IMG/VR virus record: IMGVR_UViG_2585427729_000009
Coordinates: 1-8,025 of that record
Reading direction: 5' to 3' (one strand)
Length of the DNA stretch: 8,025 nucleotides
DNA from: a virus
Taxonomy: Duplodnaviria > Heunggongvirae > Uroviricota > Caudoviricetes
A program made the position numbers and the translations under genes. How positions within the stretch are numbered: the first letter of the stretch is position 1; every line of letters begins with the position of its first letter. Positions 2,917 through 7,506 of this stretch are shown piece by piece. Below the pieces are notes generated by a model. It made no database searches and was not told where the DNA came from. It saw only the letters and a list, made by a program, of their open reading frames with translations.

Positions 2917-2945
2917 AAAAAAAAAACCCCGACACTAAGGTCGGG
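2917..2945 (-). terminator. Intrinsic terminator immediately downstream of cI
   Basis: Plus strand has A10 (2917..2926), stem CCCGAC (2928..2933), loop actaag, GTCGGG (2940..2945). On the minus strand this is a GC hairpin followed by T10, about 33 nt after the cI stop (2978..2980). Confidence 0.7.
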
Positions 2946-2977: not shown

Positions 2978-3637
2978 TTAACTAAATGTCTCTTCAGGCC
3001 ACTGGCTGGCGATAACTTTCCCTACTACGGAACAGCTATCATTGCATGGAATCATTGGATATTGCGGGTTTAGTGGCTGTAGGAACACCTGACCGCTATC
3101 CCTGATCAGTTTCTTGAAGGTAAACTCGTCACCACCAAGTCTGGCTATGCAGAAATCACCTGGCTCAACAGCCTGCTCAGGGTCAACGAGAATTAACATC
3201 CCGTCAGGAAAGCTTGGCTTGGATCCTGTTGGCGCGGTCATGGAATTACCTTCAACTTCAAGCCAGAACGCACAATCACTGGCTTTTTTGGTTGTGCTGA
3301 CCCATCTCTCCGCATCACCTTTGGTAAAGGTTCTAAGCTCAGGCGAGAACATCCCGGCCTGAACATGAGAAAAAACAGGGTACTCATATTGTTTTTTAAC
3401 GGGGGCAGATGAGTATTCGCCAACAGGTGAAAATGTACCGTCGTGGTTGAATGAGACGTTATCAATACCAAGGTATTTAAACACCACACCAATCTCGTCA
3501 AGAGATGGATGACGAGATCCGCGCAACCAGTGACCAATTCCACCCTGCGTCATACCAAGCTCTTCAGCTAACTTCTCTTGAGTTATGCCGAGCTCTTTCA
3601 TTCTGGATCTAGCCAGTTCATACCATTTCATTTTCAT
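2978..3637 (-). CDS. cI: CI-type immunity repressor; lambda-like C-terminal dimerisation/autocleavage (S24 peptidase) domain with a non-lambda N-terminal HTH (XRE-type) domain
   Basis: C-terminal part ...[39 protein letters not shown]...[12 protein letters not shown] matches lambda CI. N-terminal part [44 protein letters not shown]... does not. Start chosen at Met22 of the track ORF (rc 3635..3637) from HTH spacing; Met24 (3631) or the ORF start (3700) are alternatives. Confidence 0.85.
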
Positions 3638-3646
3638 ACCCTTATT

Positions 3647-3661
3647 ATTACGCTCTGTACT
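3647..3661. promoter_or_regulatory. Putative operator OR3
   Basis: attacgctctgtact (a-TAC-N5-GTACT), next to the cI start and overlapping the presumed pRM region. Confidence 0.4.
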
Positions 3662-3672
3662 AAAACCATCCA

Positions 3673-3687
3673 TGCACAAGATGTATT
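3673..3687. promoter_or_regulatory. Putative operator OR2
   Basis: tgcacaagatgtatt shares the AC-N5-GTA-tt core with the other candidate sites. Confidence 0.35.
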
Positions 3688-3694
3688 TTTTTGT

Positions 3695-3723
3695 TTGCAT
3701 TCTAAAAGTACATATCGTATTAT
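3695..3723 (+). promoter_or_regulatory. pR early rightward promoter (candidate)
   Basis: TTGCAT (3695..3700), 17-nt spacer, TATTAT (3718..3723), about 27 nt upstream of the cro ATG, which has a GGAGGG Shine-Dalgarno at 3741..3746. Confidence 0.5.
3707..3721. promoter_or_regulatory. Putative operator OR1
   Basis: agtacatatcgtatt matches the minus-strand reading of OL1 (AGTACAAATCGTACT) at 13 of 15 positions and overlaps the pR spacer and -10, as OL1 overlaps pL. Confidence 0.5.
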
Positions 3724-3749
3724 TGTTTCATGGTTACTATGGAGGGCAT

Positions 3750-3965
3750 ATGAGCAACCTACGAAAATATCGAGAGTCACTGAATATCTCTCAAACAACA
3801 CTTGCTAAGGCAGTTGGATGCACACAGGGAGCTATCGGACATTGGGAATCTGGTCGTCGCTTCCCAGACCTTAAAACATGCCGTGCTCTTGTTGAGTGCC
3901 TAAACAAGTTAGGCGCAAAAGTCAGTCTTGATGACGTGTTCCCGCCGGAACACAAAGCCGCTTAA
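3750..3965 (+). CDS. cro: Cro-like repressor (71 aa, HTH XRE-type; not lambda Cro)
   Basis: MSNLRKYRESLNISQTTLAKAVGCTQGAIGHWESGRRFPDLK..., with start ATG 3750..3752 after a strong SD. The track ORF from 3585 is an upstream extension. Divergent from cI and followed by nutR, as for lambda cro. Confidence 0.85.
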   Translation: MSNLRKYRESLNISQTTLAKAVGCTQGAIGHWESGRRFPDLKTCRALVECLNKLGAKVSLDDVFPPEHKAA

Positions 3966-3973
3966 GACATTCC

Positions 3974-4005
3974 CGCTCTTACACATCCCAGCCCTGAAAA
4001 AGGGC
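3974..4005 (+). promoter_or_regulatory. nutR: nutR (boxA CGCTCTTAC + boxB GCCCTGAAAAAGGGC); tR1 region follows
   Basis: Exact boxA at 3974..3982 and boxB hairpin at 3991..4005; the sequence on to the cII start matches my memory of the lambda tR1 region. Confidence 0.9.
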
Positions 4006-4084
4006 ATCAAATTAAACCACACCTATGGTGTATGCATTTATTTGCATACATTCAATCAATTGTTATCTAAGGAAATACTTACAT

Positions 4085-4378
4085 ATGGTTCGTGCAAACA
4101 AACGCAACGAGGCTCTACGAATCGAGAGTGCGTTGCTTAACAAAATCGCAATGCTTGGAACTGAGAAGACAGCGGAAGCTGTGGGAGTTGATAAGTCGCA
4201 GATCAGCAGGTGGAAGAGAGACTGGATTCCAAAGTTCTCAATGCTGCTTGCTGTTCTTGAATGGGGGGTCGTTGACGACGACATGGCTCGATTGGCGCGA
4301 CAAGTTGCTGCGATTCTCACCAATAAAAAACGCCCGGCGGCAACCGAGCGTTCTGAACAAATCCAGATGGAGTTCTGA
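4085..4378 (+). CDS. cII: CII transcriptional activator (97 aa)
   Basis: MVRANKRNEALRIESALLNKIAMLGTEKTAEAVGVDKSQISRWKRDWIPKFSMLLAVLEWGVVDDDMARLARQVAAILTNKKRPAATERSEQIQMEF. Start at 4085 after TAAGGAAATACTTACAT; the track ORF from 4025 is an upstream extension. Confidence 0.93.
   Translation: MVRANKRNEALRIESALLNKIAMLGTEKTAEAVGVDKSQISRWKRDWIPKFSMLLAVLEWGVVDDDMARLARQVAAILTNKKRPAATERSEQIQMEF
4094..4107 (-). promoter_or_regulatory. CII-binding site of pRE (TTGC-N6-TTGC) overlapping the cII 5' end
   Basis: rc(4094..4107)=TTGCGTTTGTTTGC, the direct-repeat CII recognition element; the pRE -10 would lie just downstream on the minus strand, around 4070..4080. Confidence 0.55.
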
Positions 4379-4398
4379 GGTCATTACTGGATCTATCA
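4322..4398 (-). ncRNA. oop: oop antisense RNA (approximate ends) with terminator hairpin inside the cII 3' end
   Basis: Minus strand reads CGCTCGGTTGCCGCCGGGCG followed by TTTTTT (plus 4326..4351), the oop terminator shape, complementary to the cII 3' end. The 5' end is placed by analogy to lambda, not seen directly. Confidence 0.45.
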
Positions 4399-4410
4399 AC
4401 AGGAGTCATT

Positions 4411-5310
4411 ATGACAAATACAGCAAAAATACTCAACTTCGGCAGAGGTAACTTTGCCGGACAGGAGCGTAATGTGGCAGATCTCGATGATGGTTACGCC
4501 AGACTATCAAATATGCTGCTTGAGGCTTATTCAGGCGCAGATCTGACCAAGCGACAGTTTAAAGTGCTGCTTGCCATTCTGCGTAAAACCTATGGGTGGA
4601 ATAAACCAATGGACAGAATCACCGATTCTCAACTTAGCGAGATTACAAAGTTACCTGTCAAACGGTGCAATGAAGCCAAGTTAGAACTCGTCAGAATGAA
4701 TATTATCAAGCAGCAAGGCGGCATGTTTGGACCAAATAAAAACATCTCAGAATGGTGTATCCCTCAAAACGAGGGAAAATCCCCTAAAACGAGGGATAAA
4801 ACATCCCTCAAATTGGGGGATTGCTATCCCTCAAAACAGGGGAACACAAAAGACACTAATACAAAAGAAAAAAGAAAAGATTATTCGTCCGAGAATTCTG
4901 GCGAATCCTCTGACCAGCCAGAAAACGATCTTTCTGTGGTTAAACCGGATGCTGCAATTCAGAGCGGCAGCAGGTGGGGGACAGCAGAAGACCTGACCGC
5001 CGCAGAGTGGATGTTTGACATGGTGAAGACTATCGCGCCATCAGCCAGAAAACCGAATTTTGCAGGGTGGGCTAACGATATCCGCCTGATGCGTGAACGT
5101 GACGGACGTAACCACCGCGATATGTGTGTGCTGTTCCGCTGGGCCTGCCAGGACAACTTCTGGTCCGGTAATGTGCTGAGCCCGGCCAAACTCCGCGACA
5201 AGTGGACCCAGCTCGAAATCAACCGTAACAAGCAACAGGCAGTAGTGACAGCCAGCAAACCAAAACTCGACTTGACAAACACAGACTGGATTTACGGGGT
5301 GGATTTATGA
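4411..5310 (+). CDS. O: O replication initiator protein (299 aa)
   Basis: MTNTAKILNFGRGNFAGQERNVADLDDGYARLSNMLLEAY... matches lambda O along its length; contains the ori iterons. Confidence 0.95.
   Translation: MTNTAKILNFGRGNFAGQERNVADLDDGYARLSNMLLEAYSGADLTKRQFKVLLAILRKTYGWNKPMDRITDSQLSEITKLPVKRCNEAKLELVRMNIIKQQGGMFGPNKNISEWCIPQNEGKSPKTRDKTSLKLGDCYPSKQGNTKDTNTKEKRKDYSSENSGESSDQPENDLSVVKPDAAIQSGSRWGTAEDLTAAEWMFDMVKTIAPSARKPNFAGWANDIRLMRERDGRNHRDMCVLFRWACQDNFWSGNVLSPAKLRDKWTQLEINRNKQQAVVTASKPKLDLTNTDWIYGVDL
4760..4890. other. Origin of replication (ori-lambda type): four about 18-bp iterons plus adjacent AT-rich tract, inside the O gene
   Basis: Iterons tccctcaaaacgaggga (4760..4776), tcccctaaaacgaggga (4780..4796), atccctcaaattggggga (4803..4820), atccctcaaaacagggga (4826..4843), followed by an A-rich stretch to about 4890. 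Confidence 0.85.
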
Positions 5311-6008
5311 AAAACATCGCCGCACAGATGGTTAACTTTGACCGTGAGCAGATGCGTCGGATCGCCAACAACATGCCGGAACAGTACGACGAAAAGCCTC
5401 AGGTACAGCAGGTAGCGCAGATCATCAACGGTGTGTTCAGCCAGTTACTGGCAACTTTCCCGGCGAGCCTGGCTAACCGTGACCAGAACGAACTGAACGA
5501 AATCCGCCGCCAGTGGGTTCTGGCTTTCCGGGAAAACGGGATCACCACAATGGAACAGGTTAACGCAGGAATGCGCGTAGCCCGTCGGCAGAATCGACCA
5601 TTTCTGCCATCACCCGGGCAGTTTGTTGCATGGTGCCGGGAAGAAGCATCCGTTATCGCCGGACTGCCAAACGCCAGCGAGCTGGTTGATATGGTTTACG
5701 AGTATTGCCGGAAGCGTGGCCTGTATCCAGATGCAGAGTCTTATCCGTGGAAATCAAACGCGCACTACTGGCTGGTTACCAACCTGTACCAGAACATGCG
5801 GGCCAATGCGCTGACTGACGCGGAATTACGGCGTAAGGCTGCCGATGAGCTGACCTGTATGACAGCGCGAATTAACTGTGGTGAGACTATACCTGAACCA
5901 GTAAAACAACTTCCTGTCATGGGCGGCAGACCTCTAAATCGAGCACAGGCTCTGGCGAAGATCGCAGAAATTAAAGCTAAGTTCGGACTGAAAGGAGCAA
6001 GTGTATGA
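5307..6008 (+). CDS. P: P replication protein (DnaB helicase loader), 233 aa
   Basis: MKNIAAQMVNFDREQMRRIANNMPEQYDEKPQVQQ... matches lambda P; its ATG overlaps the O stop (ATGA at 5307..5310). Confidence 0.95.
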   Translation: MKNIAAQMVNFDREQMRRIANNMPEQYDEKPQVQQVAQIINGVFSQLLATFPASLANRDQNELNEIRRQWVLAFRENGITTMEQVNAGMRVARRQNRPFLPSPGQFVAWCREEASVIAGLPNASELVDMVYEYCRKRGLYPDAESYPWKSNAHYWLVTNLYQNMRANALTDAELRRKAADELTCMTARINCGETIPEPVKQLPVMGGRPLNRAQALAKIAEIKAKFGLKGASV

Positions 6009-6295
6009 CGGGCAAAGAGGCAATTATTCATTACCTCGGAACGCATAAGAGCTTCTGTGCACAGGACGTTTCCGCGCTAACAGGCGCAACAGTAACCAGC
6101 ATAAATCAGGCCGCGGCTAAAATGGCACGGGCAGGTCTTCTGGTTATCGAAGGTAAGGTCTGGCGAACGGTGTATTACCGGTTCGCTACCAGAGAAGAAC
6201 GGGAAGGAAAGGTGAGCACGAACCTGATTTTTAAGGAGTGTCGCCAGAGTGCCGCGATGAAACGGGTATTGGCGGTATATGGAGTTAAAAGATGA
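6005..6295 (+). CDS. ren: Ren (Rex-exclusion escape protein), 96 aa
   Basis: MTGKEAIIHYLGTH...VLAVYGVKR matches lambda Ren; its ATG overlaps the P stop (ATGA). Confidence 0.9.
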   Translation: MTGKEAIIHYLGTHKSFCAQDVSALTGATVTSINQAAAKMARAGLLVIEGKVWRTVYYRFATREEREGKVSTNLIFKECRQSAAMKRVLAVYGVKR

Positions 6296-6320
6296 CCATC
6301 TACATCACTGAGCTAATAAC

Positions 6321-6352
6321 AGGCCTGCTGGTAATCGCAGGCCTTTTTATTT
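6321..6352 (+). terminator. tR2-like intrinsic terminator between ren and ninB
   Basis: Stem AGGCCTGC (6321..6328), loop tggtaatc, GCAGGCCT (6337..6344), then TTTTTATTT. Confidence 0.65.
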
Positions 6353-6368
6353 GGGGGAGAGGGAAGTC

Positions 6369-6809
6369 ATGAAAAAACTAACCTTTGAAATTCGATCTCC
6401 AGCACATCAGCAAAACGCTATTCACGCGGTACAGCAAATTCTTCCAGACCCAACCAAACCAATCGTAGTAACCATTCAGGAACGCAACCGCAGCTTAGAC
6501 CAGAATCGAAAGCTTTGGGCTTGCCTTGGTGACGTCTCTCGTCAGGTTGAATGGCATGGTCGCTGGCTGGATGCAGAAAGCTGGAAGTGCGTTTTTACAG
6601 CAGCATTAAAGCAGCAGGACGTTGTTCCTAACCTTGCCGGGAATGGCTTTGTGGTAATAGGCCAGTCAACCAGCAGGATGCGTGTAAGCGAATTTGCGGA
6701 GCTATTAGAGCTTATACAGGCATTCGGTACAGAGCGTGGCGTTAAGTGGTCAGACGAAGCGCGACTGGCTCTCGAATGGAAAGCGCGATGGGGAGATCGG
6801 GCTGCATGA
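6369..6809 (+). CDS. ninB: NinB (Orf-family recombination mediator), 146 aa
   Basis: MKKLTFEIRSPAHQQNAIHAVQQILPDPTKPIVVTIQERNRSLDQNRKLW... Start ATG 6369 after GGAGAGGGAAG; the track ORF from 6351 begins at a TTG and is an extension. Confidence 0.9.
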   Translation: MKKLTFEIRSPAHQQNAIHAVQQILPDPTKPIVVTIQERNRSLDQNRKLWACLGDVSRQVEWHGRWLDAESWKCVFTAALKQQDVVPNLAGNGFVVIGQSTSRMRVSEFAELLELIQAFGTERGVKWSDEARLALEWKARWGDRAA

Positions 6810-7333
6810 CTATCAAATCAAATACGCCATCACACGACAAGGACTGCTGGCAAACGCCGCTCTGGCTTTTTGATGCACTGGATATTGAGTTTGGATTCTG
6901 GCTGGATTCGGCAGCGAGCGACAAAAATGCTCTGTGCGCTCACTGGCTAACTGAGGCTGACGACGCGCTAAATTCTGAGTGGATAAGCCACGGTGCAATC
7001 TGGAATAACCCACCGTACAGCAATATCAGGCCGTGGGTGGAAAAAGCCGCTGAGCAGTGCATACAACAACGACAGACGGTAGTGATGCTTGTGCCAGAGG
7101 ATATGTCTGTCGGATGGTTCAGCAAGGCTCTGGAGAGTGTCGACGAAGTTCGCATTATCACTGATGGACGGATTAATTTTATCGAACCATCGACAGGGCT
7201 GGAGAAGAAGGGAAACAGCAAAGGCTCCATGCTGCTGATTTGGCGACCGTTCATCAGTCCTCGACGGATGTTTACTACCGTATCCAAAGCGGCATTGATG
7301 GCGATCGGGCAGGGCGTCAGGAGGGCGGCATGA
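6806..7333 (+). CDS. Phage Dam-like DNA N6-adenine methyltransferase (about 175 aa), orphan
   Basis: Begins [31 protein letters not shown]... and contains the catalytic tetrapeptide NPPY (IWNNPPYSN). ATG 6806..6808 overlaps the ninB stop (ATGA). No adjacent restriction endonuclease gene. Confidence 0.7.
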
Positions 7334-7506
7334 GGCGACAACGACGAAGTATCACCGACATCATCTGCGAAAACTGCAAATACCTTCCAACGAAACGCTC
7401 CAGAAATAAACGCAAGCCAATCCCAAAAGAATCTGACGTAAAAACCTTCAATTACACGGCTCACCTGTGGGATATCCGGTGGCTAAGACATCGTGCGAGG
7501 AAATGA
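7330..7506 (+). CDS. Small basic NinE/NinD-family nin-region protein (58 aa, CxxC)
   Basis: [61 protein letters not shown] 7330 overlaps the methyltransferase stop (ATGA); the track ORF from 7240 is an extension. Confidence 0.7.

Follow-up and report, generated by a model that had tools for sequence, protein, structure and literature searches.

The region between positions 2978 and 3965 of the 8,025-nucleotide stretch of phage DNA analyzed here (the window) contains the cI and cro genes of a lambdoid immunity region. Given the anatomy of these genes and their surroundings, it is very probable that they form part of the imm cassette of a lambda/434-like lambdoid prophage, that this cassette belongs to the VT2-Sakai type (cI2c/cro4) and operates as a lambda-style switch, and that the chimeric structure of its repressor is an ancestral feature of the type.

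The leftward open reading frame that contains cI has a mechanical extent of 2978–3700 and could encode 240 amino acids. However, the cI gene likely begins at the ATG at position 3637 or at the ATG at position 3631, and the CI protein would then have 219 or 217 amino acids rather than 240. The gene thus delimited occupies 2978–3637 on the minus strand, with its stop codon at 2978–2980. The extra codons of the longer frame, which reach to 3700, sit over oR3, oR2, and the −35 element of pR. Moreover, CI homologues from other genera start at the position of an MK..W motif, and the annotated start of VT2-Sakai cI is the equivalent of 3631. Pfam matches place an HTH_3 domain at residues 32–79 of the 240-amino acid frame (E = 8.5e-11) and a Peptidase_S24 domain on its C-terminal side (E = 1.1e-28). 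The VQAGMF, GNSM, and FKKL motifs of the latter part align with, and are identical to, those that carry the Ala–Gly cleavage site and the Ser/Lys dyad of lambda CI, which correspond to Ala94–Gly95, Ser132, and Lys175 in the 219-residue numbering. By these features, namely an N-terminal HTH_3 domain followed by a Peptidase_S24 domain with its Ala–Gly site and Ser/Lys dyad, CI can be classified as a lambdoid repressor of the LexA/S24 family.

Comparison with lambda divides this repressor into two parts. From the sequence YEYPVF to the C terminus, 133 of 136 residues (98%) are identical to lambda CI, and the three differences are S to C, E to D, and the terminal G to S. The corresponding DNA (2984–3388, minus strand) encodes the hinge with the Ala–Gly site and the S24 dimerization and cleavage domain, and matches lambda positions 37233–37637 at 93.8% by blastn. 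Lambda DNA homology within the module is confined to this segment and ends sharply at 3388/3389, which is the first Tyr codon of YEYPVF and lies in the linker. The remainder of the gene (3389–3637, minus strand) encodes the N-terminal DNA-binding domain that Pfam assigns to HTH_3, and blastn found no DNA similarity to lambda in this 83-residue region. A first-pass annotation of the window had described CI as chimeric, with a lambda-like C-terminal domain behind a DNA-binding domain of another type, and the alignment bears this out. The same annotation called the head unrelated to that of lambda, which is true of the DNA but goes too far for the protein. The two HTH regions are 46% identical over 26 residues (pairwise E = 1e-7), and PDB matches to the N-terminal domain include pieces of the lambda repressor head (E = 7e-4). 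The CI head is a divergent HTH_3 domain that is distantly homologous to its lambda counterpart.

The cro gene (3750–3965, plus strand) is preceded by a GGAGGG ribosome-binding site at 3741–3746 and encodes a protein of 71 amino acids in which HTH_3 is the sole domain (Pfam E = 1.4e-12). Its nearest solved structure is chain 28tn_A, described as a "lambda repressor-like protein" (E = 2.4e-16), and no alignment to lambda Cro is obtained at E ≤ 100. Both the description of Cro as a 71-residue non-lambda protein and the resemblance of its HTH region to that of CI, as recorded in the first-pass annotation, are upheld. The CI N-terminal domain and Cro are identical at 22 of 62 aligned residues (35%; E = 5e-13), which is well above chance, and a TQGxIGHW recognition region is common to the two. 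We take the folds of both proteins to be settled by the Pfam and solved-structure matches.

Putative operators were recovered by homology to annotated operators of the Stx1 phage and VT2-Sakai, and by a position-weight-matrix scan in which each site in turn was left out of the matrix and 8009 positions of the window were ranked. Six related 17-mers occur only in two clusters, at 2824–2898 and 3646–3722, and each ranks seventh or better among the 8009 positions, whereas the best position outside the operators has a far lower score. In the right cluster, oR1 (3706–3722; AAGTACATATCGTATTA; rank 2 of 8009) overlaps the spacer and −10 element of pR, oR2 (3672–3688; ATGCACAAGATGTATTT; rank 7 of 8009) adjoins the −35 element of a proposed pRM promoter, and oR3 (3646–3662; TATTACGCTCTGTACTA; rank 6 of 8009) overlaps the −10 element of the same proposed promoter. 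In the left cluster, oL1 (2824–2840; TAGTACGATTTGTACTT; rank 1) overlaps the −10 element and spacer of pL, oL2 (2849–2865; CAATACAAAATGTTCTA; rank 6) overlaps its −35 element, and oL3 (2882–2898; TATAACGCTTTGTATTT; rank 6) completes the set. The twelve half-sites have the consensus TAGTACAA, wherein A2, A5, and C6 are invariant or almost so and T4 is present in most. Center-to-center spacings are 25 and 33 bp in oL and 26 and 34 bp in oR. An inverted-repeat finder with 6-nucleotide seeds did not pick up these operators because their arms match exactly over only 3–5 nucleotides.

A promoter scan identified pR at 3695–3723 on the plus strand (TTGCAT, 17 nucleotides, TATTAT), the equivalent of which is annotated in VT2-Sakai, and pL at 2823–2851 on the minus strand (TTGACT, 17 nucleotides, TACTAT). 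Transcription from pL is predicted to start near 2816/2817, and the corresponding position in phage 434 is annotated as the +1 nucleotide of pL. The proposed pRM (3644–3672, minus strand) was read from the sequence as a weak −35 element (TGGATG) and a −10 element (AATAAT) separated by 17 nucleotides. It is not listed by the consensus promoter scan, and its position is the equivalent of the "maintenance promoter" annotated in VT2-Sakai. Transcription from pRM is predicted to start near 3637, on the A of the cI start codon, which would make the cI mRNA leaderless like that of lambda. Directly after cI, a terminator scan and an inverted repeat indicate an intrinsic terminator (2919–2945, minus strand), and neither rexAB nor other cargo is found between cI and oL. 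Beyond cro, in the lambda-like right flank, a pattern search located a candidate CII box for pRE at 4094–4107 on the minus strand (TTGCGTTTGTTTGC). A single match to this pattern would turn up at random in roughly half of cases, and the assignment is made because the box lies at the start of a lambda-type cII gene and its equivalent is annotated in phage 434. The module thus has a tripartite oR between divergent cI and cro genes and a second tripartite operator at pL, which is the arrangement by which a lambdoid switch is recognized.

Four blocks of the window are homologous to lambda by blastn (300–1365, 2282–2817, 2984–3388, and 3972–6809), and lambda-type gam, kil, cIII, and ea10 are found in the surroundings of cI and cro. 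The left flank, which carries N and nutL, is lambda-like up to the pL start (≤2817), and the right flank is lambda-like from position 3972 onward, where nutR, cII, O, P, ren, and ninB are located. This agrees with the earlier observation that the flanks return to lambda-like sequence. Mapping of the breakpoints against lambda places them at 2817/2818, 3388/3389, and 3971/3972. Relative to both lambda and phage 434, the left break coincides with pL +1, and the right break lies six bases past the cro stop codon. The segment to the left of cI (2818–2983), which contains the oL operators, the pL hexamers, and the terminator, is also non-lambda, and therefore the lambda-like stretch of cI is enclosed by the cassette on both sides instead of forming its edge.

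These boundaries support the view that the module is a classical imm substitution, bounded by pL +1 and the end of cro, in a lambda/434-like backbone. The immunity is not that of lambda, as the CI head, operators, and Cro that define it are absent and no lambda DNA homology exists in 2818–2983 or 3389–3971. Outside the imm cassette, the closest relative of the backbone is wild-type phage 434, with 98.3% identity across 81% of the window. Of the immunity-region swap proposed in the first-pass annotation, the substitution itself therefore stands, but its junctions in this phage do not include the break within cI, given that 2818–2983 is non-lambda as well. In no complete E. coli genome does the 8-kb mosaic occur undivided, and the best of these genomes cover 92% of it at 97.8% identity or 88% at 99.2%. 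Each of its segments is common.

The first-pass annotation had named identity of the module to an already characterized immunity type as grounds for refuting its reading, and this is essentially what we find: the module belongs to the type named cI2c/cro4 by Smith 2012 (PMC3430580), in which cro4 is the accompanying allele in 1717, II, and VT2-Sa. The region 2978–3965 matches at 92.9% the Stx1 converting phage, Stx2 phage II, Nil2, 2851, 1717, YYZ-2008, and the PA-series Stx2 phages, and the portion spanning the CI head, oR, and cro (3389–3971) also matches the Stx2 phage VT2-Sakai (Sp5) at ~93.9% nucleotide identity. In five sequenced phages (vB_EcoP-720R6, 683R2, Dewey, Louie, and phi458), the cassette recurs at 97.5–99% and is accompanied by the compact left arm seen here. 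Among 5426 complete E. coli genomes, 776 (approximately one in seven) contain 80% or more of the cassette. Stx1-phage CI likewise switches to a lambda-like tail at this junction, and its HTH is identical to that of the present CI. The two heads differ at three residues, all outside the HTH, and the two Cro proteins are identical at 70 of 71 residues, with the difference again outside the HTH. Each of the six operators aligns with a single annotated counterpart in the Stx1 phage and in VT2-Sakai, with one or two substitutions and the half-site core kept, and oL overall is 82% identical to that of VT2-Sakai-type phages. On the basis of its CI head, its Cro, and the sequences and arrangement of its operators, we assign the module to the VT2-Sakai type.

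The combination of a chimeric CI with a matched Cro is in fact already known from VT2-Sakai genome annotations and from comparative papers. According to the account of Fattah 2000 given in PMC10742460, homology between the VT2-Sakai and lambda CI proteins is high in the C-terminal part and low in the N-terminal part, and cross-immunity occurs between the phages. Lambda CI binds VT2-Sakai operators weakly, with apparent KD values of 3.7–6.4 µM compared to 0.2–3 µM for its own sites (PMC10742460). No discussion of the present repressor type is found in the papers by Koudelka on hair-trigger induction and PA2/PA8.

Flanking annotation was inspected for two members of the type, the Stx1 phage and VT2-Sakai, and in both the cassette has different neighbors from those in the window. 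Their interval between cI and oL is ~1.5 kb long and contains open reading frames, whereas the interval here is gene-free. Their N is annotated as HK97-like or 933W/H-19B-like and their cII, O, and P as HK022-like, unlike the lambda-type N, cII, O, and P of the present backbone.

The present allele likely shares the immunity specificity of the Stx-phage allele, even though the two have diverged by 7% at the nucleotide level and the operators have accumulated nine substitutions and a 2-bp change in the spacing between oR1 and oR2. One might instead read these operator differences, along with the three substitutions in the CI head and a drop in identity to 85% within 3678–3777, as signs of a separate specificity that makes this phage heteroimmune to VT2-Sakai-type phages. 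Matches in E. coli genomes likewise fall into a band at ≥99% identity (66 records) and a band at 90–95% (959 records), although the latter takes in matches to the C-terminal part only, such that these bands represent two allele groups only loosely. We consider a separate specificity quite unlikely. The HTH of CI is unaltered, the single Cro difference lies outside its HTH, and the conserved half-site positions (A2, A5, and C6, and T4 in most sites) are unchanged, with most of the differences being central or at the outer edge of the operators.

A second alternative concerns the origin of the chimera. If a recent swap had occurred through a crossover inside the cI linker, the tail would derive from the lambda backbone, and the head, oR, and cro would have been imported. 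The sharp break from lambda homology at 3388/3389 has the appearance of such an event, and the part of the tail nearest to the junction (3278–3388) is closer to lambda (97.3%) than to the Stx1 phage (93.7%). However, had the crossover fallen in cI, lambda oL and rexAB would still be in place, whereas the sequence at 2818–2983 is non-lambda and its operators have the imported specificity. In addition, the last 100 nucleotides of cI are only 85% identical to lambda compared to 90% for the Stx1 phage, and the same joint is found in the cI of every member of the type, including the Stx1 phage and VT2-Sakai with their different neighbors. Over the entire C-terminal part, the pairwise identities among the present, lambda, and Stx1-phage alleles are 93.2, 91.5, and 92.9%, which corresponds to a star-like relationship, and the CI tail carries no sign of recent exchange with lambda itself. 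We therefore regard a recent swap as very improbable. Because the joint recurs in other members and the tail alleles are about equidistant, the lambda-like C terminus is best interpreted as an ancestral shared trait of the immunity type that was not made in this phage.

Chimeras of this kind extend beyond the VT2-Sakai type. In a search of a large protein collection, lambda-type tails (at least 80% identity) were found joined to at least four classes of head: lambda-like heads, heads of the present type, a group 52–59% identical to the present type, and an unrelated HTH_19 domain. Conversely, heads that are 77–82% identical to the present CI head occur with tails that are just 58% identical. 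In the E. coli repressor P0106, near-identity to the lambda-type tail begins part-way into the C-terminal domain, which therefore marks a second junction position. From these comparisons, reassortment of heads and tails is general among enterobacterial CI repressors, and the present chimera is best explained as a product of such repeated exchanges.

Based on the anatomy of the module and on the lambda, 434, and P22 paradigms, an ancestral chimera of the VT2-Sakai type would be expected to function as follows. CI dimers would bind the six 17-bp operators (half-site approximately TAGTACAA) through the non-lambda HTH head. Occupancy of oR1 would shut off pR, and occupancy of oL1 and oL2 would shut off pL. 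CI bound at oR2, adjoining the weak −35 element of pRM, would sustain its own synthesis, which would be limited by binding to oR3 over the pRM −10 element. The lambda-type tail would provide dimerization, pairwise cooperativity, and probably looping between oL and oR over ~0.88 kb. This tail would also carry out RecA-stimulated self-cleavage through Ala94–Gly95, Ser132, and Lys175, such that DNA damage leads to prophage induction. Cro would bind these operators as well and lower transcription from pRM and, at a later stage, from pR, a scheme that follows 434 and P22 and not lambda. Establishment would depend on CII and pRE from the lambda-like right flank, with transcription from pRE reading back through cro into cI.

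That the module is instead a decaying remnant of a cryptic prophage with no working switch is highly unlikely, since, even though the cI of this type in Nissle 1917 is annotated as split in two pieces and one VT2-Sakai record has a stop codon (Smith et al., PMC3430580), both frames here are intact, the cleavage and catalytic residues, operators, promoters, and terminator are in place, and cassettes of 99% identity have been deposited as phage records.

A prophage of E. coli Nissle 1917 carries this immunity type, and Bury et al. 2018 (PMC5987069) described a Nissle prophage gene, "pr", as protective against both lambda and stx phages. We rejected pr as evidence on the present CI, as three of the four primers from that study found in the locus (a cloning primer at 5084 and qPCR primers at 5327 and 5367) map to the neighboring cII or immediately upstream of it, rather than to cI.

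Sharing of one repressor tail by heteroimmune phages raises another possibility. Because the tail is 98% identical to that of lambda CI and near-identical to that of a third E. coli repressor class, represented by P0106, heteroimmune repressors in a polylysogen could conceivably form mixed dimers or cooperative contacts through it and thereby couple their prophages. Partial cross-immunity between VT2-Sakai and lambda, reportedly observed by Fattah et al. 2000 as related in PMC10742460, would be an example. We consider such coupling a speculative and rather unlikely prospect. If it did occur, it might take the form of partial cross-immunity, dominant-negative destabilization, or co-induction, and the shared tail would then have functional relevance instead of being just a by-product of mosaicism. 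Many Stx2a, Stx2c, and Stx1 prophages of E. coli O157:H7 are under the control of the cI2c/cro4 type, which may therefore have practical relevance, and the induction of toxin phages would be affected by any cross-talk through the shared tail. The module also offers a textbook-clean case of modular phage evolution, in that the limits of the imm cassette are exact at the pL start and the cro stop. As a discovery, however, it matters little: the feature is real and functional-looking, but represents a common and well-known immunity type.

Among well-studied systems, lambda shares with the present module the divergent arrangement of cI and cro, tripartite 17-bp operators on both sides, and cassette limits at pL +1 and the end of cro. 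A leaderless cI mRNA may also be common to both. The two differ in that the operator half-sites here are of a TAGTAC type that is distinct from the operator sequences of lambda, and the operator spacings deviate from those of the annotated lambda operators. Furthermore, the distance between oL and oR is ~0.88 kb compared to ~2.4 kb in lambda, and rexAB is absent. In the relationship between its two regulators, the module more closely resembles phages 434 and P22, in which a small HTH_3 Cro is homologous to the repressor head and the same operators are read by related recognition helices. Identity to the 434 repressor is only 32% for the present CI, and 434 Cro aligns with the present Cro over 33 residues at 39% identity. 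The operators here are 17 bp long and unrelated in sequence to the 14-bp operators of 434.

The repressor P0106 (E. coli, 214 aa), recovered in the protein-collection search, represents a third class, in which the N-terminal DNA-binding domain is unrelated and of the HTH_19 type. Within its C-terminal part, the first ~40 residues are divergent and the remainder is near-identical to the lambda-type sequence. Because this near-identity begins only part-way in, the protein shows a second recombination joint that lies inside the C-terminal domain.

The lambdoid prophage of E. coli Nissle 1917 (NZ_CP007799.1; locus L003, positions 3995-4988) carries the same immunity type as the window. The annotation at this location divides the cI gene in two: one piece is an S24 fragment, and the other is a separate HTH protein of 65 aa. 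Of the four “phage repressor pr” primers of Bury et al. (2018; PMC5987069), three map in Nissle not to cI but to the neighbouring cII gene and the sequence immediately upstream of cII.

The predicted operators of the window have centre-to-centre spacings of 25 and 33 bp at oL (2824-2898) and 26 and 34 bp at oR (3646-3722), which are greater than those between the annotated lambda operators. The wide gap separates oR1 from oR2 on the right, whereas on the left it separates oL2 from oL3. Therefore, the oL and oR triplets are not mirror images.

Between cI and oL (2899-2977), a terminator is located directly 3′ of cI and is followed by oL3. This interval is without the rexAB genes present in lambda, and also without any of the ORFs that occur in the ~1.5 kb cI-oL interval of Stx1 phage and VT2-Sakai. 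Given that oL and oR are ~0.88 kb apart in the window compared to ~2.4 kb in lambda, the geometry of any CI-mediated loop would be altered.

A 293-aa ORF is encoded on the minus strand between ea10 and N (1394-2275), in a low-GC stretch (~30-35% GC), where lambda instead carries ral, orf28, and sieB. A Pfam search with this ORF yielded no match; phrog_12139 (unknown function) matches it over its full length. Its final 19 residues (...NHAHQRNPNKKWS) match the profile of the Nun-like transcription-termination-factor family at the C-terminal end of that profile, and the same gene in phage 434 is annotated as “Nun C-terminal peptide-containing protein.”

On the plus strand, 3′ of ninB, the window carries a DNA N6-adenine methyltransferase gene (6746-7333). 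Comparison with lambda revealed no homology across 6810 to 7336, and lambda has ninC in place of this gene. In contrast, both phage 434 and the Nissle prophage carry a DNA N6-adenine methyltransferase gene after ninB, as in the window.
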